From contig CAMYON010000013.1 in NCBI GenBank assembly GCA_947260025.1, forward strand, positions 20,806 to 84,805: a stretch of 64,000 nt of DNA. Direction: 5' to 3'. The position numbers and the translations under genes are program-made. Positions 4,246 through 20,783 of this stretch are shown piece by piece. Within the stretch, counting starts at the first letter, position 1, and each line of letters begins with the position of its first letter. The notes beneath the pieces were generated by a model that made no database searches, was not told the origin of the DNA, and saw only the letters and a list, made by a program, of their open reading frames with translations. The stretch comes from an uncultured Gammaproteobacteria bacterium. Lineage in GTDB: Bacteria > Pseudomonadota > Gammaproteobacteria > GCA-001735895.

Positions 4246-4269
4246 CCATTTTAGTCAGGATTGTATACT
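4242..4269 (+). promoter_or_regulatory. Sigma70-type promoter for iscR (TTGACC -35 at 4242-4247, 16-bp spacer, TATACT -10 at 4264-4269)
   Basis: Hexamers and spacing read from sequence; 30 nt upstream of the iscR ATG; the -35 overlaps the kinase stop codon. Confidence 0.5.
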
Positions 4270-4299
4270 GAGCGCGTTTTTACGCCATTCTATTGCACG

Positions 4300-4755
4300 A
4301 TGCGACTATCCACTAAAAGCCGATACGCAGTAACCTCGCTGCTCGATCTTGTTATGCATTCAGACCAGGGGCCCGTATCGCTGGCCGATATCTCGGTGCG
4401 CCAGGGTATTTCGCTATCCTACCTGGAACAGTTGTTCGCCAAAATGCGCCGCAACAAGCTGGTTGTCAGCACCCGCGGTCCCGGTGGCGGTTACAGCCTG
4501 GACAGCACTCCCGAGCAGGTATGTATCGCCGATGTAATCAACGCCGTAGACGAAGAAATGCAGGTAGCAGACAAGGATATTCCCAATGGCTCGGCCAGCT
4601 ATGAACCCTGCTTGACAGAGCAACTGTGGGAAGAGCTAAGCGCCGAAATCGAAAACTACCTGACCACGATTTCGCTCGCGGATATGATGAAAAACGAAGA
4701 GGTGCAGGAGCTGTCGCGCGCGCACGATCTGCGCCAACGGCAGAATATCGTTTAG
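4300..4755 (+). CDS. iscR: Rrf2-family transcriptional regulator IscR-like (lacks two of three cluster cysteines)
   Basis: MRLSTKSRYAVTSLLDL...GPGGGYSL Rrf2 HTH; first gene of the isc operon; start taken at internal ATG 4300, not the TTG ORF start at 4261. Confidence 0.8.
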   Translation: MRLSTKSRYAVTSLLDLVMHSDQGPVSLADISVRQGISLSYLEQLFAKMRRNKLVVSTRGPGGGYSLDSTPEQVCIADVINAVDEEMQVADKDIPNGSASYEPCLTEQLWEELSAEIENYLTTISLADMMKNEEVQELSRAHDLRQRQNIV

Positions 4756-4759
4756 GCCA

Positions 4760-5908
4760 ATGTCAATTTACCTCGACCACAATGCAACCTCGCCGATGCG
4801 TCCCGAAGTCATCGACGCGATGATGCCTTTCCTGCAAAACCCGGTCGGCAATCCGTCCAGCCTGCATAGCTATGGCCGCATGGCGCGCTCGGCGGTGGAA
4901 TCGGCTCGCGCCGAGGTGGCGCAGTTGCTGGGTTGCGATAGCGCCGCGGTTATCTTTACCTCGGGTGGCACCGAGGCAAATAACCTGCTGTTGAAGGGAT
5001 ACGTGGATCACGCCAGCCGTCGACCCATCATCAGCAGCGAGATCGAGCATTCCGCGGTTCTCGAACCCTTGAAACAGTTGCAGGCAGAGGGTATGAACGT
5101 GGTCTTGCTAAAGCCAAACCCGCAGGGGCAGGTGGACCTGGAAACAGCGCGGCCGTTGGTTACCGGTGCCGATGCGCAGTTACTGTCGATCATTTACGCC
5201 AATAACGAAACCGGCGTCATCCAGCCGGTCGAGGCGCTGGCCGAGATGGTGGATCGCGATGCCTGCCTGGTGCATAGCGATGCAACCCAGGCAATCGGCA
5301 AGATTCCGTTCGACCTGTCGCAACTGGCAATCGATGCTGTCAGTTTTTCCGCCCATAAATTAGGTGGGCCCCAGGGTGTCGGCGCGCTGGTGGTAAATCG
5401 CAAACCCAGGCAGGCTTTGATTAGCGGTGGAGACCAGGAAAACAAGCGCCGCGGCGGTACTGAAAACGTCGCCGGCATTGTCGGACTCGGCAAGGCGGCG
5501 CAGATTGCGCGACTTGAAATAGCGCACAAGCAACATCACTTAACTCAACTAAGAGATACTTTCGAAGCCAGGCTGTCTGAAATTCCGGGTAGTGTGGTCT
5601 TCGGGCAAGGCGTTCCGCGGCTGCCGAATACGACTTTTTTCGCGCTGCCGTATTACCATGGCGAAACCCTGTTGATGGAACTCGATCGGTTGGGATTCGC
5701 GTTATCAAGCGGCTCCGCCTGCCATAGCATGGTTACCGAGCCTAGCCACGTACTCAAGGCAATGGGTGTCGACGATAACCTGGCTTTGAATGCGATCAGG
5801 GTCAGTTTCGGGATGGATAACAGCTTGCAGGATGCGGAACAACTGGCGGCGAAACTACAGGAACTGGTAGAGAGATTACCGCCGGTCATTCGCCAGGCGG
5901 CGGGATAG
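4760..5908 (+). CDS. iscS: Cysteine desulfurase (IscS/NifS class I)
   Basis: 382 aa; PLP-Lys motif [12 protein letters not shown]; active-site Cys loop SSGSACHS. Confidence 0.85.
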
Positions 5909-5918
5909 AGAGAGATCA

Positions 5919-6242
5919 ATGGCAATTCATCTTAGCGATATAGCGGCATCGAGGGTGCAGCACTTTCTGGAAAACCGGGGCAAGGGCATCGGCCTGCGAC
6001 TCGGTGTGAAAACGACCGGTTGTTCCGGCCTTGCCTATGTCATCGAATTTGTCGATGAACTGCAGGAGGGCGACGAAGTTTTCGAAACCAAGGGTGTCAA
6101 GGTGATAGTCGATAAGAAAAGCCTGATGTTCCTCGACGGCACCGAGGTAGATTTCGCCAAGGTTGGGCTGAATGAAGGATTCCAGTTCAAGAATCCCAAC
6201 GCCAAGGATGCCTGCGGCTGCGGCGAAAGTTTCACCGTCTGA
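5919..6242 (+). CDS. iscA: Fe-S cluster assembly A-type carrier IscA/HesB
   Basis: 107 aa; C-x(n)-CGCG motif (TTGCSG...ACGCGESF). Confidence 0.85.
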
Positions 6243-6258
6243 CCCTTAAACCATAAAC

Positions 6259-6798
6259 ATGCAGTCCCCCGAACTTAGCCAGGACTATTTCGAGTTATTT
6301 GGTTTGAATCCCGTGTTCGATATCGACCCCACCTCGTTGCATGCAGCACAACAGCGACTGCAGGCTAACCATCACCCCGACCGCTACGTCGGCTCGAGCG
6401 AGCAGGATAAGCGGTTATCGGTGCAGATTGCTTCCCGGGTCAACCAGGCCTATGAAACCCTGCGTGACCCGGTAAAGCGTTCTCGCTACCTGCTGGAAAT
6501 CAACGGCGCGACGCTGCCCGACGATTCGGCAACCACGGCCGATACCGAGTTCCTGATGGAGCAGATCGAATTACGTGAAGCGGTCGAAGCCTGCCGCCAG
6601 GGTGAGGATGCGCTGGCGCGTAGCGAAGCGATCGAAACCAGGCTCAAGCAGCGAGCGACAGAACTGGCGCAGGAATTTGTAGAGCGCTTCGATGGCGGCC
6701 GCTTCGACGAGGCGATCGAAGCTAGTCGCAAGATGCAGTTTGTTCAGCGCATACAGCAGCAGCTCGACGAACTACAGTTCGAGCTGGAGGACTTTTAA
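6259..6798 (+). CDS. hscB: Co-chaperone HscB (J-domain)
   Basis: 179 aa; J-domain with HPD; position between iscA and hscA. Confidence 0.85.
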
Positions 6799-8666
6799 TG
6801 GCGCTGTTGCAGATATCCGAGCCTGGCGAGTCGAGCGCACCGCATCAGCGGCGCCTGGCGGCCGGCATCGATCTGGGCACCACGAATTCGCTGGTGGCGT
6901 CGGTACGCAGCGGAGAAGCCATCTGCCTGCCCGATGAGCGCGGGCGGAGCCTGTTACCGTCGGTGGTGCACTACGACGGCAACCAGGTCCTGGTCGGACA
7001 CGAGGCGCGGTCGCTGCAGGCCGTCGACCCGTTAAACACTATTGCCTCGGTAAAGCGGCTTATGGGCAGGGGACAGGAGGACGTCAAGCGGCTTGCCAAC
7101 GTCGTGCCCCATGAGTTTGTCGCCACCGAAGCCAGTACTGTTCCGCGGATTCGCACCGCGGGCGGCGATTTCAGCGCGGTCGAAATCTCCGGCGAAATCC
7201 TGAAAATCCTGGCGCAGCGAGCCGCGCATAGTCTTGGCGGGGATCTCGAAGGCGTGGTGATAACCGTTCCGGCGTATTTCGACGATGCTCAACGCCAGGC
7301 AACGAGAGATGCCGCAAGGTTCGCCGGGCTGAACCTGTTCAGGTTGTTAAACGAGCCCACCGCGGCCGCTGTCGCTTACGGGCTCGACCAGGATGCCGAC
7401 GGATTGATCGCGGTCTATGACCTCGGCGGCGGGACTTTCGATATATCCATTCTGAGGCTCAACAAGGGCGTATTCGAGGTGCTTGCCACCGGCGGCGATT
7501 CGTCGCTGGGGGGCGATGACATGGACCATGCGTTGGGTGAATGGATCATCGAGCAGGCTGGCTTCAGCGATATCGACGCCGTACTGGCGCGCAAGATCCT
7601 GATCGCCGCCCGCAATGCCAAGGAACAGCTTAGCAACGGCGACTCGGCCTTGATCAGTATCGACCACGCGCAGCCATGGCAGGCCGAAATCGGGCGCGCC
7701 CAGTTCAGCGACCTGATTGAACCCCTGGTCAGGAAAACCCTGTCGGCCTGTCGCAGGGCGCTGCGCGACGCCGGTATCGATAAACAGGAAATTGCCGAAG
7801 TGGTCATGGTCGGAGGATCGACGCGGGTGCCGCTGGTACAGACCATGGTGGGAGATTTTTTCGGCCGTAAACCCATGTGCGAACTCGATCCGGACCAGGT
7901 GGTTGCCCTGGGTGCCGCTATCCAGGCCGATATACTGGCTGGCAATAAACCCGATAGCGACATGCTGTTGCTAGACGTGTTGCCGCTATCGCTGGGCATC
8001 GAAACCATGGGCGGTCTGTGCGAGAAAATTATCGAACGCAATACCGCGATCCCGGTGGCGCGCGCGCAGGAATTCACCACTTTCAAGGATGGACAAACCG
8101 CGATGTCGATTCACGTGGTGCAGGGTGAGCGCGAACTGGTGTCGGACTGCCGCTCGCTGGCGCGCTTCGACTTACGCGGCTTCCCGCCAATGGTGGCTGG
8201 CGCCGCCCGGATTCGCGTCACCTACCAGGTGGATGCCGATGGCCTGATGTCGGTTACGGCAGAGGAAACCACCAGCGGCGTAGCCGCGGATATCGTCGTC
8301 AAACCGTCATATGGCCTTACCGATACGGAAATCGAAACCATGCTGCGCGCCTCGATGGAGCACGCCCGAGAAGATATCGAAGCGCGTATGCTCAAGGAGC
8401 AGCAGGTTGAAGCGCGGCGTGTGCTCGAAGCAGTCGACGCGGCGCTGCTGCAGGATGGCGAAGCCCTGCTGAACGAGTCTGAACTGACCGCGATTCAGCT
8501 TAAACGTAGCGAGTTGGAAAAGGGGCTCGAAAGCGCTAGCGCCGATGAGCTCAAACAATTGATCAAGTCCGTCGAGCAGGTCAGTGAGACCTATGTCGCC
8601 CGACGCATGAATGCGAGTGTCAAACAGGCGCTTGCGGGTAAACAAATAGATGAGGTTGATGTTTAA
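6798..8666 (+). CDS. hscA: Fe-S cluster biogenesis chaperone HscA (Hsp70 family)
   Basis: 622 aa; Hsp70 signatures ([16 protein letters not shown]); ATGA overlap with hscB. Confidence 0.9.
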
Positions 8667-9004
8667 TGCCCAGGGTTACCGTATTACCGCACGAAGAGAT
8701 CTGTCCCGAGGGAGCGCAGCTGGAAGTCGAGCCGGGAATCAGTCTGTGCGATGCGATGCTTCGTAATCACATAGAAATCGAGCATGCCTGTGAAAAGTCA
8801 TGCGCCTGTACCACCTGTCACGTTTACGTGCGCGAGGGCTTCGATTCGCTGGAAGAGTCGAGCGAGGATGAAGACGATTACCTCGACAAGGCCTGGGGCC
8901 TGGACATGGATTCGCGCCTCAGCTGCCAGGCGATCGTGGGCGAAGAAGACCTCACGATCGAAATTCCAAAATACACCATCAACATGGTGTCCGAGAACCA
9001 CTAG
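8666..9004 (+). CDS. fdx: [2Fe-2S] ferredoxin Fdx (isc-type)
   Basis: 112 aa; CEKSCACTTCH cysteine motif; ATGA overlap with hscA. Confidence 0.9.
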   Translation: MPRVTVLPHEEICPEGAQLEVEPGISLCDAMLRNHIEIEHACEKSCACTTCHVYVREGFDSLEESSEDEDDYLDKAWGLDMDSRLSCQAIVGEEDLTIEIPKYTINMVSENH

Positions 9005-9013
9005 GAGAGAGCC

Positions 9014-9214
9014 ATGTCCCTGAAATGGACTGATACGCTTGATATCGCGATTGAACTGGCGGAGACGCATACCGATGTCGACCCACAATACGTGCGTTTC
9101 ACCGATTTGCACGCCTGGGTGTGTGCACTTGACGACTTTGACGATGATCCTAATCACTCGAACGAGAAGATCCTGGAAGCCATCCAGATGGCCTGGATTG
9201 ACGAAGCGGACTGA
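9014..9214 (+). CDS. iscX: Fe-S assembly protein IscX (YfhJ)
   Basis: 66 aa acidic protein, colinear with IscX; last gene of the isc operon. Confidence 0.8.
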
Positions 9215-9274
9215 TTTGATCAAATCCTGGTCAAAATCTTGACAGAAAACCGTCGAGTTCTCGACACTTTAGTT

Positions 9275-9298
9275 GTTCAAAATCAAACACTTTTGAAC
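9275..9298. promoter_or_regulatory. Perfect 8-bp inverted repeat GTTCAAAA-N8-TTTTGAAC in the AT-rich iscX/rpfF spacer; candidate operator
   Basis: Read in sequence; a second palindrome GTCGAG-tt-CTCGAC lies at 9252-9267. Confidence 0.3.
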
Positions 9299-9566
9299 TC
9301 TTCTTAAGGTGGATTGAGCACTATTTTCCCTAAAAGTGAAATTTTTTTTCGCTGCCGTTTTTATTCACTAAATTCCTATCGCCTAATAAGTTAGGCATTA
9401 CACTTAAAGTAAATTCTACAATTGAGGCTGTGAACTTGGTCACAGTTTGCTTGCAATCATTCCTCGTTTCGGTAAATTAAGTCGTAACGCGTCGCTTAAA
9501 GAAAGACGGGTAAGGTCCTGAAATTACAACGATTTAAAGACTCAGGCATCGCAATTATAGCTAATT

Positions 9567-9585
9567 CCCGAATGCAACATTCGGG
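9567..9585 (+). promoter_or_regulatory. 8-bp stem / 3-nt loop hairpin (cccgaatg-caa-cattcggg) in the rpfF 5' leader, ~30 nt upstream of the ATG
   Basis: Perfect inverted repeat read in sequence. Confidence 0.3.
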
Positions 9586-9617
9586 CACGAAGACAGAGAC
9601 ATCCGGAGAGAGACAAT

Positions 9618-10496
9618 ATGAGCAATGTGGCATATATCAATGAAGTTACGTCCGAACGCCAGGGCTACGCCGACCGGTCCCAACTAAAAACCTACTACGA
9701 CAACAAGAACAAGATTGGCTGGTTTTTGATGAAGGGTGCCCCGCGCCCATCCTTTACCGTACGGTTGCTTACCGAAATCAGCGATTATTTCAAAGTTGTA
9801 AAGCAGGAGATGGCCGAGACCAATGGCGAGAAGTATGATTTTCTGGTCCTTGGTTCGGATATCGAGGGGGTTTTCAACCTGGGCGGCGACCTTGAGCTCT
9901 TCAGCCAGTATATTCGTAATAGGGACAGAGAGGGGCTGCTCAGGTACGCCGCTCATAGTATCGATCTGGTGCATCAGAACATGACTCATTTAGGCGAGGA
10001 CCTGACTACTATCTCGCTAATACAGGGAGATGCATTAGGAGGTGGTTTCGAATCCGCGATCTCTGCCAATGTTGTCGTCGCCGAGAGAGGTAGTAAGGCC
10101 GGTCTACCGGAGGTGTTGTTCAATCTTTTTCCGGGCATGGGCGCATTTTCTCTTCTGTCCCGTAAAATCGGATTTGCCGAAGCCGAAAAAATGATAATGA
10201 GCGGTGGCCTGTACTCTGCAGAACAGTTGTTTGATATGGGAGTGGTCGACATTCTCGCGGAAAAAGGAGAGGGCGAGGTTGCTGTTTATCGCTATATCAA
10301 GTCTAACCAAAGGTCAATGAATTCCTACCGTTCGATGCAGCAGGTCAAGGATATCTGCAACCAGGTGAGCTATCAGGAATTAATGGATATTGGAGAAGTC
10401 TGGGCTGATGCGGCGCTTAAACTCACCGAGAAGGACCTGCGTATGATGGAGCGACTGGTTCGGCGTCAAAATTCCCGAGCGGAAGATCAGGCCTGA
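9618..10496 (+). CDS. rpfF: DSF synthase RpfF (crotonase-family enoyl-CoA hydratase/thioesterase)
   Basis: 292 aa; long colinear blocks with Xanthomonas RpfF (VFNLGGDLxLF, LxQGxALGGGFExA, GLPEVLFxLFPGMGA, LVRxQ); both catalytic Glu retained. Confidence 0.85.
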   Translation: MSNVAYINEVTSERQGYADRSQLKTYYDNKNKIGWFLMKGAPRPSFTVRLLTEISDYFKVVKQEMAETNGEKYDFLVLGSDIEGVFNLGGDLELFSQYIRNRDREGLLRYAAHSIDLVHQNMTHLGEDLTTISLIQGDALGGGFESAISANVVVAERGSKAGLPEVLFNLFPGMGAFSLLSRKIGFAEAEKMIMSGGLYSAEQLFDMGVVDILAEKGEGEVAVYRYIKSNQRSMNSYRSMQQVKDICNQVSYQELMDIGEVWADAALKLTEKDLRMMERLVRRQNSRAEDQA

Positions 10497-10497
10497 A

Positions 10498-13083
10498 TTA
10501 CCGATCGGTCAATTCTCTCGGATAATTGTCTCGTTGACCCGTGGCTGCATTGTTTAATGCAGCCACGGTCATATTAAATACTTCCTCGATTGCAAGGCAC
10601 ATCTGGTTTATTTTCTCACTACCTATGTCATAGGGCTTTAACGACTCGCCCTCGTTGCAAATCTCTACCAGCTTGTTGGCGCCAAGCTCGGTCGCCGAAC
10701 CTTTCAGCGCATGCAGATTCTCCCGATATTCGAGATAGTCGTCATACATAGCTTTCTTGGTATTCAGAATATGCTGAGAACCTTCCTTCTCGAAATTCAT
10801 AAGCAGGTTGCTCACGAAATCGGGGTCGTCCCCCAGGATGTCTAGCTCATGCAGCACGACATTGTCATACCATTCCGATTCGGCAAAATTACTCGGTAAG
10901 TGGGTTCTTGATTCTCTTGCCTGGGGCGCTTTTCGGGCCTTCGGCTTGTGAATGTTTTTCGATAATGAAGCGATACACTCAAGCAGGCCGCGGGCGTCTA
11001 TCGGCTTGGTCAGGAATCGATTTGCGCCGGCGCTCAATGAGGCTTCCCTGGCTTCGGGTGTGGCATCGGCAGTCAACATAATGACAGGCAAGTTGCTGCT
11101 GGTATCCATGAAACGCAAGGACTTGACGACTTCGACACCTGAAATCTCGGGCATATTCATATCAAGGATGAGCATGTCGATCTTGTCGAGTTCATTGCTG
11201 AGTATATCCAGCGCTTTTTCTCCAGTGCTGGCGATGCGCACATTGTGCCCCGTGTTGCGGAGTATACCCTCGATAACCTTCTGGTTGACCTGATTATCTT
11301 CGGCCACCAGGATATTTAGCGCGGCCGCACCGGACTGCTTTGCGTAATGCTCAGCCATGGTGACGATCTTGTTGTCATTCAGATTAACACTCTGTGCCGC
11401 GTGAAGAGCATTGAAAAGGAGTCGTTTTTCTTCGGGATTGGCGATAGTCGAGATGTAGTAATGACTCGAGCGGTTGGCGTCGATCATCGTATCGGACGAA
11501 TTGATCAGTACCATGGAAGTATTTTCCAGTAAACCCTCGGATTTCACCATTTGCGCGAATTGCAAAGCATTTATATCGACCAGGCAGGACTGGTCCACGA
11601 TGATAGTCTCGTAGGGATTGTTGTCATCGTCCGACTGAATCATCTGCGACAGGGCGCGACTCGAGGTTCGAACCCAATCGAAATTAACCTGCCAGTATTT
11701 GAGTGCGGGTCTGATGATGCTGGCGGTATCCTCACCTGACAGCAGCAAGACGTGGTTTTCGGAAATACTGGTTTCCGGGTTGGTGCTCGCCAGGAACGGT
11801 AGTTCGAACCAGAAAGTGGAACCCTTGCCGGCCTCGCTGACGACGCCTATTTCACCGTCCATCAACTCGACCAGCTCCTTCGATATTGTTGTTCCGAGCC
11901 CGGTACCGCCGAATGTGCGACTCGTGCCGGCATCGGCCTGGGTGAAATCATCGAAGATCTTGCCGAGGTCCTCCTCGGCGATTCCGATGCCGGTATCGAC
12001 GATTTCGAAACGAATTCGCGGGGTCGACGCAGTGCCACCGATCAAGCGTACGGACAGGATTACCGAACCCTTCTCGGTGAACTTGATTGCGTTATTAACC
12101 AGATTGATGAGCACCTGCCGCAGATGTTGTTGATCGCCTTTGAGCGCAAACGGCGTCTCGGGATCAAAGGTGCAGGATACCGTCAATTCCTTCTTTTCAC
12201 CCATCGGTGCGAGTATGTAGATTACCGAGTTGACCAGACCATGCAGGTCGAAATTCCTCGACTCGATCAGGATCTTGCCAGCCTCGATCTTGGCGATATC
12301 GAGCACGTTTTCAATCAGTTCGAGCAGGGTATTGGCGGAGCCGTGCATGGTGTTGACGAGTTCCTGCTGCTCATAGTTCAGCTTGGTTTCGCGGAGCAGG
12401 TCACCCATGCCGATGACGCCGTTGAGCGGAGTTCTCAATTCATGCGACATATTCGCGAGGAAACGACTCTTGGCCTCGTTGGCCTGCTTTGCCATATTTA
12501 CCGCGGCGTGTAACTTTTTTATCAGGAAGCCGGCGTATAGCGGCAACAGGCATAGCATCAGCAGCAGGCTGATGCCAAAGCTTCGGTGCTGTTGCCAGTA
12601 GTCACCCCAGATCACCACTACGGCAAATCCAACAATGGCTATTCCCTGGGAGACATATAGGTTGGTCAATCCGAAGCGGAATCCGTTGCCCAGAATCACC
12701 CACAGATAAATCAGGAACAACGGCACGGTTTCGGCTCCCGTGTTAAACATCAGTACTGATAATGATCCCATGTCCAGTGCCGCACCGCAGATTCGTCGGA
12801 TCTGGGACGGCACCGGATTCAGAGCAATCGCCGTAAAAATTGCCATCGCGCCGGAGTAGTACAGGATTACGATGAGTCCAGCGAGAGAGGCCACGGCCTC
12901 GACAAAGCTTTCATCACTGCCCCAGGGGGTGCAGATATATATCAGAACAATGAAACCAATAGCCAGGCGCAACTTGGCCTGTTCAGGCTCAGAATCTCCG
13001 GTTCCCTTGAGTCTTTTGTTGAGTCGCCCTAGAGGGCCGATTTTTGCTTTGGAGGACGCCATTCTTAGCTGGAGAAGCGACAA
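10498..13083 (-). CDS. rpfC: DSF sensor hybrid histidine kinase RpfC (5-TM sensor, HisKA, HATPase, REC, HPt)
   Basis: 861 aa; N-terminal DSEPEQAKLRLAIG motif shared with Xanthomonas RpfC; H-box NMSHELRTPLNG; receiver (LVAEDNQVN...LILDMNMPEISG); C-terminal HPt (HALKGSA); stop 1 nt from the rpfF stop (convergent). Confidence 0.85.
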   Translation of the reverse strand: MSLLQLRMASSKAKIGPLGRLNKRLKGTGDSEPEQAKLRLAIGFIVLIYICTPWGSDESFVEAVASLAGLIVILYYSGAMAIFTAIALNPVPSQIRRICGAALDMGSLSVLMFNTGAETVPLFLIYLWVILGNGFRFGLTNLYVSQGIAIVGFAVVVIWGDYWQQHRSFGISLLLMLCLLPLYAGFLIKKLHAAVNMAKQANEAKSRFLANMSHELRTPLNGVIGMGDLLRETKLNYEQQELVNTMHGSANTLLELIENVLDIAKIEAGKILIESRNFDLHGLVNSVIYILAPMGEKKELTVSCTFDPETPFALKGDQQHLRQVLINLVNNAIKFTEKGSVILSVRLIGGTASTPRIRFEIVDTGIGIAEEDLGKIFDDFTQADAGTSRTFGGTGLGTTISKELVELMDGEIGVVSEAGKGSTFWFELPFLASTNPETSISENHVLLLSGEDTASIIRPALKYWQVNFDWVRTSSRALSQMIQSDDDNNPYETIIVDQSCLVDINALQFAQMVKSEGLLENTSMVLINSSDTMIDANRSSHYYISTIANPEEKRLLFNALHAAQSVNLNDNKIVTMAEHYAKQSGAAALNILVAEDNQVNQKVIEGILRNTGHNVRIASTGEKALDILSNELDKIDMLILDMNMPEISGVEVVKSLRFMDTSSNLPVIMLTADATPEAREASLSAGANRFLTKPIDARGLLECIASLSKNIHKPKARKAPQARESRTHLPSNFAESEWYDNVVLHELDILGDDPDFVSNLLMNFEKEGSQHILNTKKAMYDDYLEYRENLHALKGSATELGANKLVEICNEGESLKPYDIGSEKINQMCLAIEEVFNMTVAALNNAATGQRDNYPRELTDR

Positions 13084-13086
13084 TTG

Positions 13087-14229
13087 TTAGCCGTCGCTGA
13101 AGGTTTCATGGATATTGACGATATTGTCCAGACGTTCGAAAAAAGCCTCCACGCAAATCGGGTCGAACTGGGTGCCAGCGTGCTTGTGCAGATAATCCTG
13201 GGCGTCCCTGGCTTCCCAGGCGCGTTTATAGGGCCTGATCGATACCAGTGCGTCGTAAACGTCGGCAACCGCGACGATGCGCGCTACCAGTGGAATATCC
13301 TTGCCTGAAAGTCCGTTAGGGTAGCCGGTGCCGTCGAAGCGTTCATGATGGTTGAGCGCGATGATCGAGCCGGTCTGGATGTAACGTGACTGGCTGTTGG
13401 ACAGGATCGAATGCCCGATGATCGTATGTTGCTGCATCGTCAGCCACTCCTGTTGCTCGAACTTGCCGGGCTTGAGCAGGATCTTGTCCTGGATTCCGAT
13501 CTTGCCGATATCGTGCATCGGTGCGGCGTATTCGATTTCATCGCATTCTTTTTCAGACAATCCCAGGGCCTCGGCGATTTCTCGCGAGTACTTGGCCATG
13601 CGTACCACGTGGTTGCCCGTGACTTCATCGCGATATTCGCCAGCCTTGGCCAGTCGCAGCAGGGTTTCATGTTCGCGCGACACGATTTGCTGGGTTGCGA
13701 CCTCGACCTGGCGTGCCAGCCAGTCGGCACGGTCCTGGATAATCGACTGCTGTTCGTGCAGCTTGAGCAGGTTACGGCAGCTGGTGCGGCATTCGATCTG
13801 GTCGATCGGACGCGTCAGGAAGGCGGTGGCGCCAGCCTCGAGTGCGTCGTAGCGTACCGATTTCTCGCTGACCACGGTAATCATCATGATGGGTATATCC
13901 TGGCACGATGGTTTGGCGCGAATCTGCTTAATCATCTCGACGCCGTTGAGATCCGGCATGCGATAATCGGTAATAATAAGGTCCGGATGATTGTGATCCA
14001 GCCACTGCAATGCTTCCAATGGGTTGTCGAAAGAATCGACGCAGACATCTTCTTCGGCTTGCTGAATAATCTTGGCCAGTATCGTTCGGCCGGTGGATTC
14101 GTCGTCGACGATCAGTACTTTTCGTTGGCGTCTGAGAATGCTTAGACGGCGAGCGTTTTCGTACGGTTCGATATTCGAGTCCTTTGGAATATCGGTTTTT
14201 TTATCTGTACTCGAGATCAATTTTTTCAC
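13087..14229 (-). CDS. rpfG: REC plus HD-GYP c-di-GMP phosphodiesterase response regulator RpfG
   Basis: 380 aa; receiver (VLIVDDE...LIITDYRMP); HD-GYP motifs (APMHDIGK, HHERFDGTGYP); 3-nt gap to rpfC. Confidence 0.85.
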   Translation of the reverse strand: MKKLISSTDKKTDIPKDSNIEPYENARRLSILRRQRKVLIVDDESTGRTILAKIIQQAEEDVCVDSFDNPLEALQWLDHNHPDLIITDYRMPDLNGVEMIKQIRAKPSCQDIPIMMITVVSEKSVRYDALEAGATAFLTRPIDQIECRTSCRNLLKLHEQQSIIQDRADWLARQVEVATQQIVSREHETLLRLAKAGEYRDEVTGNHVVRMAKYSREIAEALGLSEKECDEIEYAAPMHDIGKIGIQDKILLKPGKFEQQEWLTMQQHTIIGHSILSNSQSRYIQTGSIIALNHHERFDGTGYPNGLSGKDIPLVARIVAVADVYDALVSIRPYKRAWEARDAQDYLHKHAGTQFDPICVEAFFERLDNIVNIHETFSDG

Positions 14230-14406
14230 CCCACATTGATTCAGACAGGACCGGACATACTAGCAAAATCAATAACTTATGTCGCTTATTTCAACTTATT
14301 GTTGGAACCTGGTCTTAATTGCCAGTTTGTTTATATAGGAAAGTAATTCAATATAATCAAGTTATTATGTTGATGATCTAACAAATCAAATGAATTTATT
14401 TCGGTA

Positions 14407-14877
14407 TTGGTAAATATGTCACATTTACGCGTTTTTATTGCAAATAGCCCTGTCCGCACGGCAATTCAGGTTTTAACCATATGCCTGCTGTTACAGCCCG
14501 TTAGCGCCTTCGCGACACAGTTGGTAGAGGTTAGTGCCGGTGGAACGACGTATCGGGTCGAAGTTGCGCGTACTTCGGCACAGCGCCGCCAGGGCCTGAT
14601 GCATCGGTCAAGCCTGGATCGAGAAGGGGGTATGTTGCTGGTTTACCGGAAGACCGGCGACCATCGAATCTGGATGAAGAATATGCGGATAGCGCTGCGC
14701 GTCTACTGGATCGATGCCGACGCCAGGGTGATTGAAATGCAGCGTCTGGAGCCCTGCCAGGAGTCACCCTGTCCGGTGTATTTTGCCTCGAAGCCGTCGC
14801 GCTACGTGCTCGAACTCAGCGATCACGAGCACCCGCTCGAAGTGGGCGACAGGATCGATGGGCTCAATGAGTTGTGA
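14407..14877 (+). CDS. DUF192-family secreted protein
   Basis: 156 aa; signal peptide; DUF192/COG1430-like pattern; divergent from rpfG across an AT-rich spacer. Confidence 0.6.
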   Translation: MVNMSHLRVFIANSPVRTAIQVLTICLLLQPVSAFATQLVEVSAGGTTYRVEVARTSAQRRQGLMHRSSLDREGGMLLVYRKTGDHRIWMKNMRIALRVYWIDADARVIEMQRLEPCQESPCPVYFASKPSRYVLELSDHEHPLEVGDRIDGLNEL

Positions 14878-15016
14878 CAGCGACGCGGCGTCGGTTCAAC
14901 CACAGCCAGGCGTGCGCGCATATCGCCGCTAAAATCAGTGGTACCACCGCATAGTTAACCAGTTGCCAGCCGAGCAAGTGCAGCAGCGCGCCGGCGCCGA
15001 ACGACGAGCAGGCTGC

Positions 15017-15150
15017 CGCCGTGAACACGACGAAGTCATTTAGCGCCTGCGACTTGGCGCTTTCCTCCGGGCGGTAGGTCTCGCGCCGTGAACACGACGA
15101 AGTCGTTTAGCGCCTGCGACTTGGCGCTTTCCTCCGGGCGGTAGGTCTCG
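15017..15150. repeat. Perfect 2 x 67-bp tandem direct duplication (one mismatch) inside the 3' end of the MFS transporter gene
   Basis: Copy 1 15017-15083, copy 2 15084-15150 (cgccgtgaacacgacgaagtcRtttagcgcctgcgacttggcgctttcctccgggcggtaggtctcg); 67 is not a multiple of 3. Confidence 0.9.
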
Positions 15151-16106
15151 GTTAGCAGGCTGGTGCCGCCGATAAACATGAAATTCCAGCCGACTCCGAG
15201 CAACAGCAGCGCCGCCCAGAAATGCCAGACCGAGCTGCCGCTGAAGTTGAGCAGGATGCACAGAATCATCAAACTGGCGCCGCTCATGATGATGCGCTGC
15301 GCGCCGAAACGATTAATCAAATGGCCGGTAAAAAACGACGGTACGAACATGCCGAGCACGTGCCATTGAATCACGAATGCAACCTCGCTGAACGCGTGAT
15401 CCTGGTGAGTCATTTCCAGCGGCGTCGCGGTCATCAGCAGCACCATAACGCTATAGCCGATGGCAGCGCTCGCCACCGCGACGATGAAGGCGGGCTGGCG
15501 CGCGATCTGTAGCATCGGTCGGGTATTTTGCCTGAAATCGCGCGCCACGGGTTTGGGCAGTTTCATGCACAGGAAGTTGATGCCGTTGAGGCCGTATAAA
15601 ACGATTACCGAAATAAAAGTACCGAGGTAAGTGATCGCGAAAACATCCTTGCTCAGATTAGCCAGGTTGGGGCCGATAATCGCCGCCAGTACCCCGCCGG
15701 CCAGCACGTAGCTGATCGCCGTATTCTTCTTGTCCGGCGGTGCCACCTCGGTCGCGGCAAATCGAAAGTAATTGCCAAAACCGGTGTACATGCCGGTGCC
15801 TATAGTGCCGATACAGAACAGCAGGAATGAATCCTGGTAAATCCCGATGACGCCGCAGACCGCCCCACTCAGGCCGATCAGCGTGGCCAGTAGAAAACCC
15901 GGCTTGCGTCCGATGCGGCCCATCAGCATCGATGCCGGGATCGTGGTCAGCATCACGGCAACGAACTGCAGTGCGAGAGGTAGCGTGGCCAGCGCCTTGT
16001 TGGTGGCGAGGTGGCTGCCGATAATCGCGGCAGAGGTCACCATCAGCGAGTTCACCGACATCATCAGTGCCTGCGCCAGTCCCAGCAGAAAAACGTTGCG
16101 ATTCAC
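15036..16106 (-). pseudogene. MFS transporter, C-terminally truncated by a frameshifting 67-bp tandem duplication (intact gene would end ~14866)
   Basis: 11 TM helices of the MFS type; GTG start overlaps the stop of the upstream AEC gene (GTGA); removing one repeat copy restores the last TM helix (GAGALLHLLGWQLVNYAVVPLILAAI) and a stop at 14866. Confidence 0.7.
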
Positions 16107-16993
16107 AGGATAAACCACAGTGTCGCCGGGATCACCACGACGCTGGCAAGGTTGCCCATTAACACGATCGATGCAACCCGATGCGGCTCCTGCTCGTAGC
16201 GTTCCGCCACCATGAAGTTCAGCACGGCCGGGGGCAACACGCTGAATAGTACTAACAGGGGTATCTGCGTCTCGGGCAATGGCACCAGGTAGACGAACGG
16301 CACCGCGATCGCCAGGCCGCTGAGCGGGCACAGCAGGGATCCGACCAGGCTGATTCTCCAGTTGGTCAGGTCGATCGCGAGCATGCGCACCCCGAGTGAA
16401 AACAGCATCAGCGGAATCGAGATCAGCCCCAGCATGTGAATCGGCTGGCGCAGGGTTTCGGGAATCACGATGCCCGAGAGCGAAACCGCGATTCCCAACA
16501 CGGTGGCCAGGATCATCGGATTGGTGGCCACCGCCCGCGGCGACCAGTGCTGGGTGATCAATTGCTGTCCTACCAGGAAATGCAGAAAGTTCGAAATTGC
16601 CAGCAGCAGGATCGCCGCTGGCAGCATCGATTCACCGAAGGCCAGCACCACCAGCGGCAAGCCCATGTTGCCGCAATTGTTGAACATCATTGGCGGCACC
16701 AGCGTCTTCCATTGGTAACCGAACGCGCGCGCCACCGGCCAGGCGATCACTCCCGATCCGAGGACTACGAAGACGCAGCCGAGCGACAGGTAAAGATAGT
16801 CGGTCAGCGCGTATTCGCTTCCCGACATGTAGTCGAAAATCAGCGCCGGGGTGAATATGTCCATGTTGATGCGGTTGCCGGAGGACATATCGGTGTCGTG
16901 CCGGTGGCGGGCATAGAAATAGCCGATGGCGACGATGCTGAAAACCGGGAAGATAATCGCAATGATGCGATAAACGAGATCCGCCTGTGACAT
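16103..16993 (-). CDS. AEC-family (auxin efflux carrier/MdcF-like) membrane transporter
   Basis: 296 aa polytopic membrane protein with AEC family similarity; 6 nt downstream of dctM. Confidence 0.7.
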   Translation of the reverse strand: MSQADLVYRIIAIIFPVFSIVAIGYFYARHRHDTDMSSGNRINMDIFTPALIFDYMSGSEYALTDYLYLSLGCVFVVLGSGVIAWPVARAFGYQWKTLVPPMMFNNCGNMGLPLVVLAFGESMLPAAILLLAISNFLHFLVGQQLITQHWSPRAVATNPMILATVLGIAVSLSGIVIPETLRQPIHMLGLISIPLMLFSLGVRMLAIDLTNWRISLVGSLLCPLSGLAIAVPFVYLVPLPETQIPLLVLFSVLPPAVLNFMVAERYEQEPHRVASIVLMGNLASVVVIPATLWFIL

Positions 16994-16999
16994 CAGGTG

Positions 17000-19663
17000 T
17001 CAGAAATGAAGGCTGATGTCTTTGTGTACGGCAAGACAGGTTGCGATCGATTCGGCCTGGTCGGAATCCAGGCGATCCTGCATACGCATGCCGATGGTGC
17101 CGGCGATCGCCTGGTCATATTCCTCGAGGTCGGTCGCGAGTTCCTCGCTGGCGCGCTGATGCCATTCGATTTCGCTTTGCAAGATTTCGGCCGCAAGCAT
17201 GGCCTCGGCCAGCGCCTTTTCCTTGTCGGGCGTCGCGCCGCGCAGGGCACGCTTGGCGCGCGACAGTTTCGACTTGATGCGATGTGTCTCGGTCAGCTCG
17301 TCGATCTTGAACTCTAACGTCTTGATAGCTTCCAGTCCTTCCTCCGGGGACTGAGAGCGGATCAGCTCCAGCAGCGGTTCGAACTCGCCCTGCAGGGCCT
17401 GCAGTTGATCGGTTTCGGAGATCATCCTGCGCATGGTCACAATCATTTCATAGCTGTCGTCGACATTCTGTCGATACTTGCGGCGAGCGGTGGTTTCCAC
17501 GCTGGCCAGGTTCTTGAATTCGCTGCGCCTTTGTTCCCAGTTGTCCGGAATGGTCGCCAGCAAGGCTTCGCTTTCGGCTTCGAGGTCCTTGATCCTGGCG
17601 AGTATGCGCTCGATCGCCGGTTCGTCTACCGGCTGTTCGAAAGCAAGCCGCTGCCGCTCCTGATCCAGTTCTTCGATAGTCTTTTTAAGCTTACGGGCGT
17701 CGCGCTGTATCTGGCGCACCTCGATATGCAGTGGGCGATAACCCGGCGTAAACTGCGCCATCGCAGCCTCGGCGGTACGAATCTCCTCGATCATGCCGAA
17801 CGCCCCGGCTGCCTGGCGGTAGCTCTCGTTGAGCCGTTCCTGGTATTCGTCCGGGAGGTAGGCGAGGTTGGCGGTCCTGACGCGTTCGATGCTGGCCTCG
17901 ATTTCGGCCCGGGTGGCGTCATAGACGACAAACTGGTAATCCTCGAGGCATTCCTGCAGCTTGGGGTTACTGGGTGGTGGCGCGGTTTCCGAAGTCAGGT
18001 GAGTCTTGTTCGGCAGGTAGTTGACCAGGCTCGGGAATGCACCCGCAATCGCGAGGCCGGCGAGCTGCAACACGATAAACGCGGCAGCGCCCTTGTAAAT
18101 CTGCAATGTGCGCACGTCCCTGGGCGCAACGCCGCGCAGGTAAAACAGGGAAAAGCCGAACGGCGGCGTCAGGAACGAGGTCTGGATGTTGAGGCCCACC
18201 ATGACGCCAAACCAGACCGCGGTCACGTTGGCACTGGGATCGGCCAGCAAAATCGGCGCCACGATCGGCACCACGACAACCGCGATTTCGAGAAAGTCGA
18301 GGAAGAATCCGAGGAAGAAGATAACCGCCATGACGACGATGAACTGTGTCCAGAACCCGCCCGGCAGCGACGTCAGGTATTCCTTGACCAGTTCCTCGCC
18401 ACCAAACGCGCGGAACGCCGAAGTCAGCATCGCCGCGCCGAGCAGTATGATGAATACCATCGACGTGGTCTTGGCGGTATCCATCATGACCCCGCGCAGC
18501 GTGTCTTCGATTTTGAAGGCGCGCCAGGTTGCCCAACCGATCGCGCCGATCAGCACCAGTGCCGCAATCGCGGCCAGCGTCACCCCGAACGCATCGTAGC
18601 CGCTTTGAATGTTCTTGATATTGAGACTGAACAGGTTCGTCAGGATGATTATTACGAAGACCGAACCGATGGCCAGTGCCGCCGGGTAGTAAGCCCTTTT
18701 ATGTCCTTCCATCAGACGGTAACTGCCCATCATCATCGCGCCGATGGCTCCGATGGCGCCAGCCTGGTTTACCGTGGCGACGCCGAGAATAATCGAGCCC
18801 AGCACGATAAAGATCAGCGTCAGCGGCGGTACCAGCGCCAACAACACCTTGAGAACGAAATGATGATCGTATTTGCCGTCGAAGGGCACCGGCGGTGCTT
18901 TCTTGGGATTGATCAGGGCCGAGCCCAGGATATAAAGCATGTAGAGGCCGACCAGGATCATGCCCGGCACGAACGCGCCCATGAACATGTCGCCCGCGCT
19001 CGCGGTCACCACGTCGAAATCTCCCGGCATAGAAAATTCACCGGTGGCCTCCTTGTATTCCGCCTTGCGCGTGGTCGCGGCCTGGTCCGCCGCGCTCGAT
19101 AACTGGTCGGCCAGGATAATCAGCACGATCGACGGCGGGATAATCTGTCCCAGCGTTCCCGAGGCGCAGATCGTGCCGCAGGCCAGCGATTTGGAATAGT
19201 TGTTGCGCAGCATGGCCGGCAGCGAGATCAGCCCCATGGCAATGACCGTGGCGCCGACGATCCCGGTGGTGGCGGCGAGCAGCGCGCCAACGAATACGAC
19301 CGATATGCCCAGTCCACCGGGGATTGGCCCGAACAGTTGCGCCATCGCGACCAGCAGGTCCTCGGCGATACGTGAACGTTGCAGCATGATGCCCATGAAA
19401 ATAAACAGCGGGATCGCGATCAGCGTATCGCGCTCGACCACCCAGTAAAGACTTCGGTAGTTGGTAACGCCGGCGCTAAGCCACTGGTTTGGTCCGCCAA
19501 GCACGAAGTAGGCGTCGACATTGCCCTCGAACACCCAGCCGCAGAAGGCGGCAATGGCGATGGTAACGACCGCCGCGCCGGGAAGCGCGAACGCTACCGG
19601 GAAGCCCGAGGTCAGGGCGAACACCATGATTGCGACCAGCAGTACCAGGAAGTACAGTTCCAT
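17000..19663 (-). CDS. dctM: TRAP transporter large permease (DctM family) fused to a ~360-aa C-terminal cytoplasmic coiled-coil domain
   Basis: 887 aa; residues 1-~525 are a 12-TM DctM domain; residues ~530-887 are charged, heptad-rich and unrelated to transporters. Confidence 0.8.
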   Translation of the reverse strand: MELYFLVLLVAIMVFALTSGFPVAFALPGAAVVTIAIAAFCGWVFEGNVDAYFVLGGPNQWLSAGVTNYRSLYWVVERDTLIAIPLFIFMGIMLQRSRIAEDLLVAMAQLFGPIPGGLGISVVFVGALLAATTGIVGATVIAMGLISLPAMLRNNYSKSLACGTICASGTLGQIIPPSIVLIILADQLSSAADQAATTRKAEYKEATGEFSMPGDFDVVTASAGDMFMGAFVPGMILVGLYMLYILGSALINPKKAPPVPFDGKYDHHFVLKVLLALVPPLTLIFIVLGSIILGVATVNQAGAIGAIGAMMMGSYRLMEGHKRAYYPAALAIGSVFVIIILTNLFSLNIKNIQSGYDAFGVTLAAIAALVLIGAIGWATWRAFKIEDTLRGVMMDTAKTTSMVFIILLGAAMLTSAFRAFGGEELVKEYLTSLPGGFWTQFIVVMAVIFFLGFFLDFLEIAVVVVPIVAPILLADPSANVTAVWFGVMVGLNIQTSFLTPPFGFSLFYLRGVAPRDVRTLQIYKGAAAFIVLQLAGLAIAGAFPSLVNYLPNKTHLTSETAPPPSNPKLQECLEDYQFVVYDATRAEIEASIERVRTANLAYLPDEYQERLNESYRQAAGAFGMIEEIRTAEAAMAQFTPGYRPLHIEVRQIQRDARKLKKTIEELDQERQRLAFEQPVDEPAIERILARIKDLEAESEALLATIPDNWEQRRSEFKNLASVETTARRKYRQNVDDSYEMIVTMRRMISETDQLQALQGEFEPLLELIRSQSPEEGLEAIKTLEFKIDELTETHRIKSKLSRAKRALRGATPDKEKALAEAMLAAEILQSEIEWHQRASEELATDLEEYDQAIAGTIGMRMQDRLDSDQAESIATCLAVHKDISLHF

Positions 19664-19664
19664 G

Positions 19665-20711
19665 TCAGTGACCGCCCTCCGAAACCGCGTTTTTATCTTC
19701 CGATATCAACTGGAAGTAGGTCTGGTGCTCCTCGCCCTTGCCGTGGCTGAGCAACTGGTTTGCGTTGTACAACAGGTAGCTGACGAACTGGATCAGCATG
19801 GTAACCGCGAAAATGATCAGGAAAGCGGCCATGAGGTACTTGACGTACATGCCGTAACCGCTTTGCGAGACTTCGAAACTGAGCAGCGGGCTATTGATAC
19901 TGTTGCCGCGGCCGCCCATGCCCTGCATCAGGATAACCCAGCAGATCGGCATGCCGAGAAACAGGCAGCCGATGGTATCGAACAGCGCTTTCTTGCGGCG
20001 CCTGAAACCGGTGTACAGCACATCGACTCGTACGTGGCCTTCCTCAACCAGCGTATGCGCACTGGCGAACAGGAACAGCGCCGCATACCAGAAACGTACC
20101 ACGTCGCCCATGTAAGCCTGCTCGTAGGAAAAAACGAAGCGCGTAATGACGATCAGGAATTCGGCCAGCACGCACATCAAAGCGAGCCAGCTGAAACTGA
20201 TATTGCGCAGCCTGGCCGCGATAAACAGCGAGGCGACGATCAAAGGGTAATGCACGTAGGTGCCACGAAATATGGGACGGCCCAGCTGCTGGTTTAACCA
20301 TTCGCCAGCAATTGGTTCGAGGATGCCTTCCACGCGCAGGAAAGAAATTACCATGTCGACCAGGCCCACCAGCGTTACCGACCAGAACGCGAAACGCACG
20401 AGGTAGGCGGAAAGCCTGGCGAAACGAATGCTGTCCTGCTCGAGCGTGCGCGCATGGGTCTTCAGTACGTATGCGACGCTGCCGGCAAGCAGCAGCAGGT
20501 AGATAATCAGCTGGGTCCAGCCCTGGCTGATTTTTGACTCGTCGAGGGCTTCGACTTCGAGGCCGAACCAGCCGTAATGCAACGCCAGCGCGTAAGGCCC
20601 CGGCATCTCCTGCCAGTAGACCAGGTAATTGTTAATCAGGTACAGAAACACGCCACTGACCATGACGTAGGCGAAACTACGCGTAATCAGGGGCAGGTTA
20701 CGTTGAATCAT
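19665..20711 (-). CDS. dctQ: TRAP transporter small permease (DctQ family), N-terminally extended
   Basis: 348 aa; DctQ signature (VDVLYTGFRRRKKALFDTIGCLFLGMPICW) in the C-terminal half; ~150 extra N-terminal residues with additional TM segments; overlaps the dctM start. Confidence 0.7.
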   Translation of the reverse strand: MIQRNLPLITRSFAYVMVSGVFLYLINNYLVYWQEMPGPYALALHYGWFGLEVEALDESKISQGWTQLIIYLLLLAGSVAYVLKTHARTLEQDSIRFARLSAYLVRFAFWSVTLVGLVDMVISFLRVEGILEPIAGEWLNQQLGRPIFRGTYVHYPLIVASLFIAARLRNISFSWLALMCVLAEFLIVITRFVFSYEQAYMGDVVRFWYAALFLFASAHTLVEEGHVRVDVLYTGFRRRKKALFDTIGCLFLGMPICWVILMQGMGGRGNSINSPLLSFEVSQSGYGMYVKYLMAAFLIIFAVTMLIQFVSYLLYNANQLLSHGKGEEHQTYFQLISEDKNAVSEGGH

Positions 20712-20738
20712 CGAACGAACGACAGCGGGGCGAAAGAA

Positions 20739-20760: not shown

Positions 20761-20783
20761 TAATTTTCGCAATAGATCCGCTG

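Follow-up and report, generated by a model that had tools for sequence, protein, structure and literature searches.

The subject of this report is a 64,000-nt stretch of DNA from an uncultured gammaproteobacterium (contig CAMYON010000013.1; the whole stretch is referred to as the window), and within it the interval that separates iscX, at the end of an isc operon, from a gene encoding a DUF192 protein. The interval holds three genes, rpfF, rpfC and rpfG, which appear to make up a complete quorum-sensing module belonging to the DSF (diffusible signal factor) family, i.e. one using a cis-2-unsaturated fatty acid. The favoured reading, to which we assign a probability of about 0.8, is that this complete module is an old insert that has been inherited vertically. 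Direct observation covers what the three parts are and that none is missing, the catalytic and phospho-acceptor residues they carry, the motif of the sensor, the convergent, abutting layout and the conservation of the module. The coordinates are collected in Table 1. Relatives used for comparison are fetched loci with labels of the form L0xx, a set that was enlarged by a metagenome scan anchored on IscX.

Starting from the left, the isc operon terminates with iscX (Pfam PF04384; TIGR03412, 117 bits). After an AT-rich spacer rpfF runs to the right and meets the 3′ end of rpfC, which lies on the minus strand. On that strand rpfG comes first and is followed, after a gap of 22 nt, by rpfC. The stop codons of rpfF and rpfC end at 10496 and 10498 respectively, with the single base 10497 between them. 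Beyond rpfG a second AT-rich spacer leads into the DUF192 gene (PF02643), which forms the right flank. The gap between the rpfF and rpfC stop codons is 1–4 nt in the relatives, and the convergent arrangement is kept in all loci of the clade and in the more distant cassettes. The rpfC frame as listed (10498–13083) opens with a TTG at 13083 that is not conserved. Relatives use the ATG corresponding to 13062 as their start, and in L006 the TTG extension is interrupted by a stop codon; RpfC is therefore taken to be 854 aa in length. Nothing lies between rpfG and rpfC in their 22-nt gap, so there is no rpfH. Nor was an AMP-binding (rpfB-like) gene found among those open reading frames (ORFs) of the window that were scanned against Pfam or, for 17000–21875, identified through synteny with L001. 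Both rpfB and rpfH are accessory, not core, parts of a Xanthomonas-type locus.

RpfF contains an ECH_1 domain (Pfam, E = 2e-20). Its best four matches in the PDB are all DSF synthases (7zq7, 3m6m, 6dgn and 5fus, where 3m6m is RpfF of Xanthomonas campestris, Xcc), aligned over the full length with E values from 1e-61 to 1e-57. The next-best crotonase has E = 6e-13, and DspI (5wyb) has 1.5e-10. The sequence is 45% identical to that of Xcc RpfF and 39% identical to that of the Cronobacter/Burkholderia type. When the 16-residue tag offset of 3m6m is allowed for, E145 (in GGGFESA) and E165 (in GLPEVLF) fall opposite the catalytic residues E141 and E161 of the Xcc enzyme.

RpfC is composed of HisKA, HATPase_c, Response_reg and Hpt domains (Pfam), with phospho-acceptors at H207 in the H-box, D634 in the receiver (REC) domain and H784 in the histidine phosphotransfer (HPt) domain. 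Five hydrophobic segments (Kyte–Doolittle value at least 1.5) precede the kinase core, with a weaker sixth possible. The N-terminal segment of 28 aa ends in TGDSEPEQ, immediately before the first of these. In Xcc, DSF binds a 22-aa N-terminal segment of RpfC, where the membrane-adjacent R15, D17, S18, E19 and Q22 are essential (Cai et al., PMC5391125). The D, S, E and Q of this set are kept here. The DSEPEQ motif is invariant in the clade and identical in cassettes of the Methylophagaceae and Psychromonadaceae types, while zetaproteobacterial copies carry RPDSEH[EK]Q, fitting the Xcc pattern R-x-D-S-E-H-x-Q. The isolated REC domain has as its best PDB match the REC domain of Xcc RpfC (3m6m_D, E = 9e-21). 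In Xcc this domain binds RpfF.

RpfG consists of a Response_reg domain followed by HD_5/HD (Pfam). Its HD-GYP domain matches PDB 4mcw (E = 6e-53), and the translation has intact PMHDIGK (HD) and HHERFDGTGYP motifs. It is thus a predicted cyclic di-GMP (c-di-GMP) phosphodiesterase, and its linkage with rpfC in the operon suggests that it would be under RpfC control.

A reading made previously from the sequence alone (the sequence-only reading) had described a DSF cassette of three genes between the isc operon and DUF192, with rpfF convergent with rpfC–rpfG, stop codons one nucleotide apart, and no rpfB or rpfH alongside. It had seen a crotonase-fold synthase with its catalytic glutamate pair conserved, a hybrid kinase with five transmembrane segments, a DSEPEQ motif, REC and HPt domains, and a REC/HD-GYP phosphodiesterase. 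The gene models, domain searches and alignments above agree with that description.

Probable insertion site and conservation

Relatives with RpfF of 76–98% identity share one gene order, iscR-iscS-iscA-hscB-hscA-fdx-iscX, then rpfF, rpfC and rpfG, then DUF192-(MFS)-MemT-TRAP. The cassette occupies this same iscX/DUF192 site in more than 20 loci, where HscA identity ranges from 68 to 95% and local G + C content (GC) from 38 to 56%. In conservation the Rpf proteins equal or exceed those of the flanks, RpfG clearly exceeding them. In L001, for example, the identities are 93% for RpfG, 82% for RpfC and 80% for RpfF, compared with 79% for HscA, 81% for IscS and 52% for DUF192. Within the clade RpfG is 88–99% identical in relatives where HscA is 75–95% identical. 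Identity of the Rpf proteins tracks that of HscA (Spearman coefficients of 0.80, 0.72 and 0.94 for the three proteins). Conservation equal to that of the Fe-S flanks, and exceeding it in RpfG, argues for a core ecological role of fatty-acid signalling and c-di-GMP control.

The empty site survives in two relatives. L049 (IscX 86% and HscA 71% identical) and L044 lack the cassette; there iscX and the DUF192 gene are adjacent, as the sequence-only reading had thought worth comparing, and the iscX stop codon overlaps the TTG start of DUF192 (aTTGA). The N-termini of the DUF192 proteins are homologous (MSHLRVF in the window, (M)KHFRVL in L049), and the same MFS gene follows DUF192 at the empty site. 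Because the empty site is exact, the 5.2-kb interval, including both spacers, corresponds to a precise insertion or deletion. The most likely history is that the insertion occurred once, in the ancestor of the clade, with vertical inheritance since. Insertion is favoured because the aTTGA junction is translationally coupled.

In the converse history the cassette would be the ancestral state of this site, and L049 and L044 would owe their empty site to a secondary precise deletion, with no insertion into an iscX-DUF192 operon. We consider this unlikely, while giving it real weight. It would accommodate the more distant relatives, which have iscX-ndk-rlmN in place of iscX-DUF192. It would also accommodate the neighbour-joining tree of HscA, which groups the cassette bearers but places the cassette-bearing L062 outside L049 and the rest, a branching that counts against a single insertion. 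The tree does not polarise insertion and loss, however; it is a weak, single-gene tree, and L049 is strongly shifted in GC (62%). Moreover, a deletion of 5.2 kb is unlikely to recreate the coupled aTTGA junction exactly. A single ancestral insertion is therefore retained as the more probable origin.

The cassette is also found in other surroundings. In L010 (CP070838.1, the chromosome of a ‘Thiotrichales bacterium’ metagenome-assembled genome, MAG) it lies between PtsP-MgtE and a FadL-family gene, and still has the part of the rpfF spacer nearest the promoter, all of the spacer on the rpfG side and some four codons of DUF192. The L010 flanks enter masked stretches of N at 9575–9675 and from ~14840, and the gene just past rpfG encodes an outer-membrane fatty-acid channel of the FadL/TodX family. 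In L013–L015 the cassette lies between Acs-Hsp15 and FdhD-MoaA; its neighbour is a phage GPA gene in L016 and MacB/HlyD in L017. In L016 (4499–6397; a Psychromonadaceae MAG) the distance to the phage GPA replication gene is ~1.5 kb, which hints at a mobile-element context in that lineage. The three-gene module is old and discrete, and occurs in other contexts in other marine lineages. Inclusion of DUF192 as a part of the module was considered and rejected, since L010 has an unrelated gene after rpfG and the neighbours of the distant cassettes are different.

There is no tRNA, integrase or transposase gene at the cassette. In the search for flanking direct repeats or att-like sites, just one match of 18 nt (83%) was found between the two spacers, unconvincing as a target duplication. 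No plasmid-borne copy was found; distant RpfF homologues (≤46% identity) are carried by alpha- and betaproteobacterial megaplasmids.

The embedded hairpin and the spacers

It had been argued that the abutting stop codons leave no room for a terminator. This is correct for the 1-nt gap itself, but a conserved terminator-like hairpin is embedded in the 3′ end of rpfC. It falls within the last ~25 codons of that gene, where it encodes TVAALNNAATG. Hairpins of 13–16 bp with compensatory changes occur in 14 distinct relatives, in which the C-terminal 130 aa of RpfC are merely 37–72% identical. In their alignment (A6) 95.7% of the cells are paired and five pairs have changes on both sides. Pair 21–42, for example, is A:U in seven sequences, C:G in five, G:C in one and G:U in one. 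Two-sided changes number 16 cells, compared with 5.4 ± 1.8 in shuffled alignments (0 of 500 reach this value), and slid-register controls pair at 23–53%. The predicted free energies (ΔG) are −21 to −26 kcal/mol. Changes in the stem are accompanied by coupled amino-acid changes (V/T to I/M). The hairpin is probably the intrinsic terminator of rpfF, lying antisense within rpfC.

A repeat of this kind might instead act in the rpfC mRNA, as a 3′ stabiliser or translational pause, or in the DNA as a protein-bound palindrome. The stem is nearly symmetrical, so that both strands fold about equally in the window (ΔG −24.1 and −24.7 kcal/mol), and the U-tract of the window itself (TCATATT) is poor. This weak tract, for which the consensus scan did not call the hairpin, is also a point against termination. 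Yet the positions of the stem covary and are not fixed, a pattern that speaks for structure and against recognition of a specific sequence by a protein. In addition, the wobble cells of the core are all G:U on the rpfF-sense strand (4 versus 0; 8 versus 2 in the outer pairs), and T-rich tails are restricted to that strand (4–6 T in 10 nt, versus 0–3 T in 12 nt on the other). A role other than rpfF termination thus seems improbable, though not negligibly so. For rpfG–rpfC no conserved hairpin was found within 220 nt inside the antisense rpfF, so that read-through into rpfF is possible.

The spacer between iscX and rpfF was aligned over ~400 nt in 11 relatives (A1). The first element, a perfect palindrome at the iscX stop codon, is not conserved. 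Two short hairpins follow just past the stop, the second having a compensatory change in L008 (GTCAGA-TT-TCTGAC); these are probably not rpfF operators but the terminator or 3′ end of the isc operon. A variable AT-rich stretch comes next. The leader also contains a candidate box for the CRP/Clp family. This TGTGA-N6-TCACA sequence is the sole match in the window, even when one mismatch is allowed. In the fetched loci, which total 1.18 Mb, the sequence has 28 exact matches; those that were mapped are all 187–203 nt upstream of rpfF, with none elsewhere. Divergent members keep the half-sites and differ in the central 6 nt (ACTTGG, ATGCCG, ATGTGT, ACCCGG and AGTAGG), and fixed half-sites with a variable centre are the pattern expected for the site of a CRP-family dimer. 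The same consensus is that of the gammaproteobacterial CRP site and of the Clp site of Xanthomonas and Stenotrophomonas, in which c-di-GMP releases Clp from DNA (bioRxiv 10.64898/2026.02.02.703240).

The variable stretch gives way to a 32-nt block, TGTGAACTTGGTCACAGTTTGCTTGCAATCAT, followed by GGTAAATT; the block is invariant in the 11 relatives. Both hexamers of a candidate sigma-70 promoter sit within it and are kept in more distant loci. The candidate scores below the threshold of the consensus scan, which returned promoter and terminator counts at chance level and missed both this promoter and the embedded hairpin. A weak promoter with a conserved box upstream indicates that rpfF is probably controlled by a CRP-family dimer, which could be cAMP-bound CRP/Vfr or a Clp-like factor released by c-di-GMP.

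The 5′ untranslated region (UTR) of rpfF contains a conserved hairpin in which one pair covaries (C:G in four sequences, U:A in six). Of the leader palindromes and hairpin that the sequence-only reading took as possible operators, the CRP/Clp-type box and this hairpin are conserved, unlike the palindrome at the iscX stop. The idea of a riboswitch or structured leader was dropped, for the whole rpfF 5′UTR folds no better than shuffled sequences (z = −0.71). Rfam gave no match in 8900–14900 at E ≤ 1.

A sigma-54 promoter of rpfF was likewise rejected in this clade, the GG-N9-GC spacing being one base short. Loci L013–L016 (Methylophagaceae and Psychromonadaceae types) have a canonical sigma-54-like GGCAC-N5-TGC (GG-N10-GC) ~95 nt upstream of rpfF, and in the clade of the window the CRP/Clp box overlaps the one-base-shorter version of that element. 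The type of rpfF promoter may have been swapped between lineages.

In the divergent spacer between rpfG and DUF192 a block of ~85 nt is nearly invariant (alignment A4), and the consensus scan gave a match. The 18-nt motif (family D13) has one copy in each spacer, 83% identical, each within a block conserved across relatives (A1 and A4). The second copy overlaps the presumed core promoter of rpfG. The motif could be the site of a shared regulator, or the likeness could be due to chance.

Table 1. Positions and base composition of the features of the rpf locus (window coordinates)
Feature	Position	Strand	GC (%)	Remarks
Whole window			56.1	
Flank, hscA to iscX			59.1	
Left junction	9212–9214	+		iscX stop codon
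Interval	9215–14406		50.1	5192 bp
Spacer before rpfF	9215–9617		38.5	
Perfect palindrome	9213–9226			GATTTGATCAAATC, at iscX stop
Short hairpin	9230–9243			GTCAA-AATC-TTGAC (GTCAA-N4-TTGAC), just past iscX stop
Short hairpin	9252–9265			GTCGAG-TT-CTCGAC
18-nt motif (CAAAATCAAnAACTTnTG), copy 1	9278–9295	+		CAAAATCAAACACTTTTG
Palindrome	9428–9445			CTGTGA-N6-TCACAG, spans the CRP/Clp-type box
Candidate CRP/Clp-family box	9429–9444			TGTGAACTTGGTCACA (TGTGA-N6-TCACA), ~190 nt upstream of rpfF ATG
Candidate weak sigma-70 promoter of rpfF	9451–9478	+		−35 TTGCAA 9451–9456, 16-nt spacer, −10 TAAATT 9473–9478
5′UTR hairpin	9567–9585	+		CCCGAATG-CAA-CATTCGGG, 32 nt upstream of rpfF ATG
rpfF ribosome-binding site	9605–9612	+		GGAGAGAG
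rpfF	9618–10496	+	49.8	292 aa, DSF-family synthase, crotonase fold
Embedded hairpin (I12)	10539–10568	+		perfect, 13 bp, CCGTGGCTGCATT-GTTT-AATGCAGCCACGG, 42 nt past rpfF stop
rpfC	10498–13064	−	51.7	hybrid sensor kinase, ATG at 13062–13064
rpfG	13087–14229	−	54.1	380 aa, response regulator + HD-GYP; alternative start TTG at 14220
AT-rich spacer after rpfG	14230–14406		31.1	
Divergent spacer, rpfG/DUF192	14230–14415			
Candidate promoter of rpfG	14257–14285	−		−35 GCGACA 14280–14285, extended −10 TGcTAGTAT 14257–14265; read from the sequence
18-nt motif, copy 2	14264–14281	+		same orientation as copy 1
Candidate promoter of DUF192	14330–14357			TTTATA-16-TATAAT; predicted
Right junction	14416			conserved ATG start of DUF192
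Flank, DUF192 to DctP			58.6	

Relation to known systems and a possible circuit

The system is of the Xanthomonas RpfF/RpfC/RpfG type rather than the Burkholderia RpfF/RpfR type. The DSF of Xcc is cis-11-methyl-2-dodecenoic acid, and the gene order there is rpfB-rpfF convergent with rpfG-rpfH-rpfC, with rpfG transcribed before rpfC. The window has the same three core parts in the same convergent layout, again with rpfG ahead of rpfC. RpfF has the same pair of glutamates, RpfC the D-S-E-x-x-Q N-terminus and the HisKA-HATPase-REC-HPt series, and RpfG the REC and HD-GYP domains; the TGTGA-N6-TCACA box matches the Clp consensus. The differences are the 45% identity of RpfF, below the equivalog cut-off, the lack of rpfB and rpfH, the absence of Arg15, a sensor segment of 28 aa instead of 22, and an uncultured marine gammaproteobacterium as host. 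RpfF of Burkholderia cenocepacia and Cronobacter (5fus and 6dgn) belongs to the same family (39% identity, E ~1e-57), and that system likewise has c-di-GMP turnover as its output. Its receptor, RpfR, is a cytoplasmic PAS-GGDEF-EAL protein, whereas here the receptor is a membrane hybrid kinase with an HD-GYP regulator.

Predictions of Rpf systems already exist for Thiolapillus brandeum Hiromi 1, a marine sulfur oxidiser (PMC4136832), and for MAGs from cold seeps (PMC12781772). These are DSF systems of marine Gammaproteobacteria at the level of annotation, so that the kind is recognised outside plant pathogens. Those reports are gene lists and do not give the borders of the insert, the candidate embedded terminator or the CRP/Clp box. 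The proteins are already named by automated annotation, and the kind is known; of specialist interest are the details of the locus, all drawn from sequence, among which the hairpin and the box are new. They are the exact insertion or deletion with a surviving empty site, the candidate rpfF terminator within rpfC, the conserved CRP/Clp-type box and the higher conservation of RpfG than of HscA. The known picture of DSF signalling is unchanged. A signalling system of pathogens is extended to an abundant uncultured lineage of marine or sediment gammaproteobacteria, where it has long been kept beside Fe-S cluster genes. The locus also offers a clean and testable case in which abutting convergent genes would solve the terminator problem by means of a hairpin in the coding sequence of the partner, and the CRP/Clp box is a candidate site at which to ask whether DSF systems autoinduce.

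Several points weigh against the assignment as a complete and functioning DSF module. RpfF passes NCBIfam PRK08788 (376 bits, cut-off 177) but fails the RpfF equivalog NF053515 (255 bits, cut-off 550), and is therefore a member of the family, not the curated Xanthomonas equivalog. In the RpfC sensor segment the essential Arg15 of Xcc is replaced by Thr, with a Lys two residues further upstream. The putative orthology of RpfG rests on domain architecture and linkage. Among the annotated ORFs of the window there is no clp or crp gene, no rpfB and no PilZ effector, and the CRP/Clp box is centred near −48.5 relative to the presumed promoter, which is no classical activating position. The functional steps are all drawn from homology, and the signal molecule is putative.

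The first of these points, together with the NCBI name of the protein (merely ‘crotonase/enoyl-CoA hydratase family protein’), might be taken to mean that RpfF is a metabolic enoyl-CoA hydratase or thioesterase and that RpfC and RpfG sense some other cue, with no self-made quorum signal. This is very improbable. RpfF matches the four solved DSF synthases some 48 orders of magnitude better than any metabolic crotonase, throughout gamma- and zetaproteobacteria it is strictly linked with a sensor of the RpfC type and an HD-GYP regulator, and the DSF-binding motif residues are kept in the sensor. Members of the cluster bear the JGI labels ‘DSF synthase’ and ‘response regulator RpfG’.

By homology, the DSF module would operate as follows. 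RpfF would make a diffusible fatty-acid signal from an acyl-ACP intermediate, which RpfC would perceive through its membrane helices and short N-terminal segment. Phosphate would then pass from His207 to Asp634, to His784 of the HPt domain and on to the receiver domain of RpfG. The phosphorylated receiver would activate the HD-GYP domain, which would degrade c-di-GMP, and the lowered level of c-di-GMP would alter effectors encoded elsewhere in the genome. The rpfF mRNA probably ends at the embedded hairpin, and so would overlap the last ~25 codons of rpfC, while transcripts of rpfG–rpfC may read antisense into rpfF.

A Clp-like factor at the box upstream of rpfF would close a positive feedback loop. 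The locus could then be a self-contained autoinduction circuit, in which DSF acts through RpfC and RpfG to lower c-di-GMP, and the Clp-like factor switches rpfF on at its box. The one-way terminator in rpfC would at the same time stop rpfF transcripts and let rpfG–rpfC transcription run antisense into rpfF, so that expression of the sensor would damp synthesis of the signal through convergent transcription. This extended scheme is speculative and probably not correct as a whole. If true, the amino-acid sequence of the RpfC tail would be dictated in part by an RNA structure that serves the opposing gene.

Base composition and neighbouring genes

The interval is the lowest in GC of all 5.2-kb windows in the 64 kb (mean 56.3, standard deviation 2.0), and of the 17 intergenic regions measuring 80 nt or more its two spacers are the lowest. 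The strongly AT-rich borders noted in the sequence-only reading are thus confirmed, as the two most AT-rich intergenic regions of the window. That reading also put the three genes at 46–52% GC against ~60% in the flanks. The direction is correct, but the size was overstated, with the genes at 49.8, 51.7 and 54.1% against 56% for the window. GC at third codon positions (GC3) is 0.58, 0.64 and 0.67 for rpfF, rpfC and rpfG, where most genes of the window fall between 0.63 and 0.78, and the composition of rpfG falls in the normal range. By Karlin codon bias the three rank 13th, 48th and 31st of 55 in the same order. The dinucleotide signature of the interval is ordinary, 19 of 118 windows being as high. 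The GC dip is real, with no anomaly of codon usage, and atypical codon usage is therefore not borne out. The dip is shared by L005–L008, L011 and L026 and is absent from the lower-GC subclade of L001, L004 and L009.

That the cassette is a recently acquired genomic island of this genome, as its low GC, very AT-rich borders and presence in unrelated contexts in other taxa might suggest, is effectively refuted by its shared position in relatives whose HscA identity falls as low as 68% and whose GC spans 38–56%, by Rpf proteins as conserved as the flanks or more so with identities that correlate with HscA, by ordinary codon and dinucleotide measures, and by the lack of a tRNA, integrase, transposase or clear flanking repeat. 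No near-identical copies (>95% at the DNA level) were found in unrelated genomes or plasmids, the plasmid hits all lying below 46% identity. Of the original proposal, the placement as an insert between isc and DUF192 is supported by the exact empty site of L049 and L044, and a recent acquisition is contradicted by more than 20 co-diverging relatives.

The isc operon (4261–9214) has the order iscR-iscS-iscA-hscB-hscA-fdx-iscX, with an IscS of 382 aa and a gap of merely 10 nt between iscS and iscA. The iscU scaffold gene is absent from it, as it is from that of L001 and L004. On the other side of the cassette DUF192 and the Mem_trans gene are separated by an MFS transporter gene (15036–16331, minus strand). 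The MFS gene is also found in L049 and is absent from L001 and L002; the size of the equivalent gap suggests its presence in L006–L008. Its presence or absence is a second small insertion or deletion adjoining the cassette.

The sole tRNA of the window is tRNA-Ser(TGA) at 59722–59809. It is followed, up to 63331, by genes of 48–53% GC and low GC3 that encode a Fpg/Nei-like glycosylase, a PLD-domain protein and an HTH_26 protein. The region 59722–63331 may be a small island at the tRNA. The ORF at 59643–59960 (minus strand), which overlaps the tRNA, is probably spurious.

A PleD-like diguanylate cyclase with REC-REC-GGDEF domains is encoded at 52293–53615 (minus strand), 38 kb from the cassette, and is a possible source of c-di-GMP opposing RpfG. 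At 23756–24862 (minus strand) a Methyltransf_7-domain gene adjoins lpxB and sugar-modifying genes. Methyltransf_7 proteins are S-adenosylmethionine-dependent carboxyl methyltransferases, best known from the SABATH enzymes of plants. Directly upstream of iscR (1766–4245) are genes for a CpxP/LTXXQ-like periplasmic protein, an OmpR-type regulator and a HAMP histidine kinase, an arrangement that is kept in relatives.

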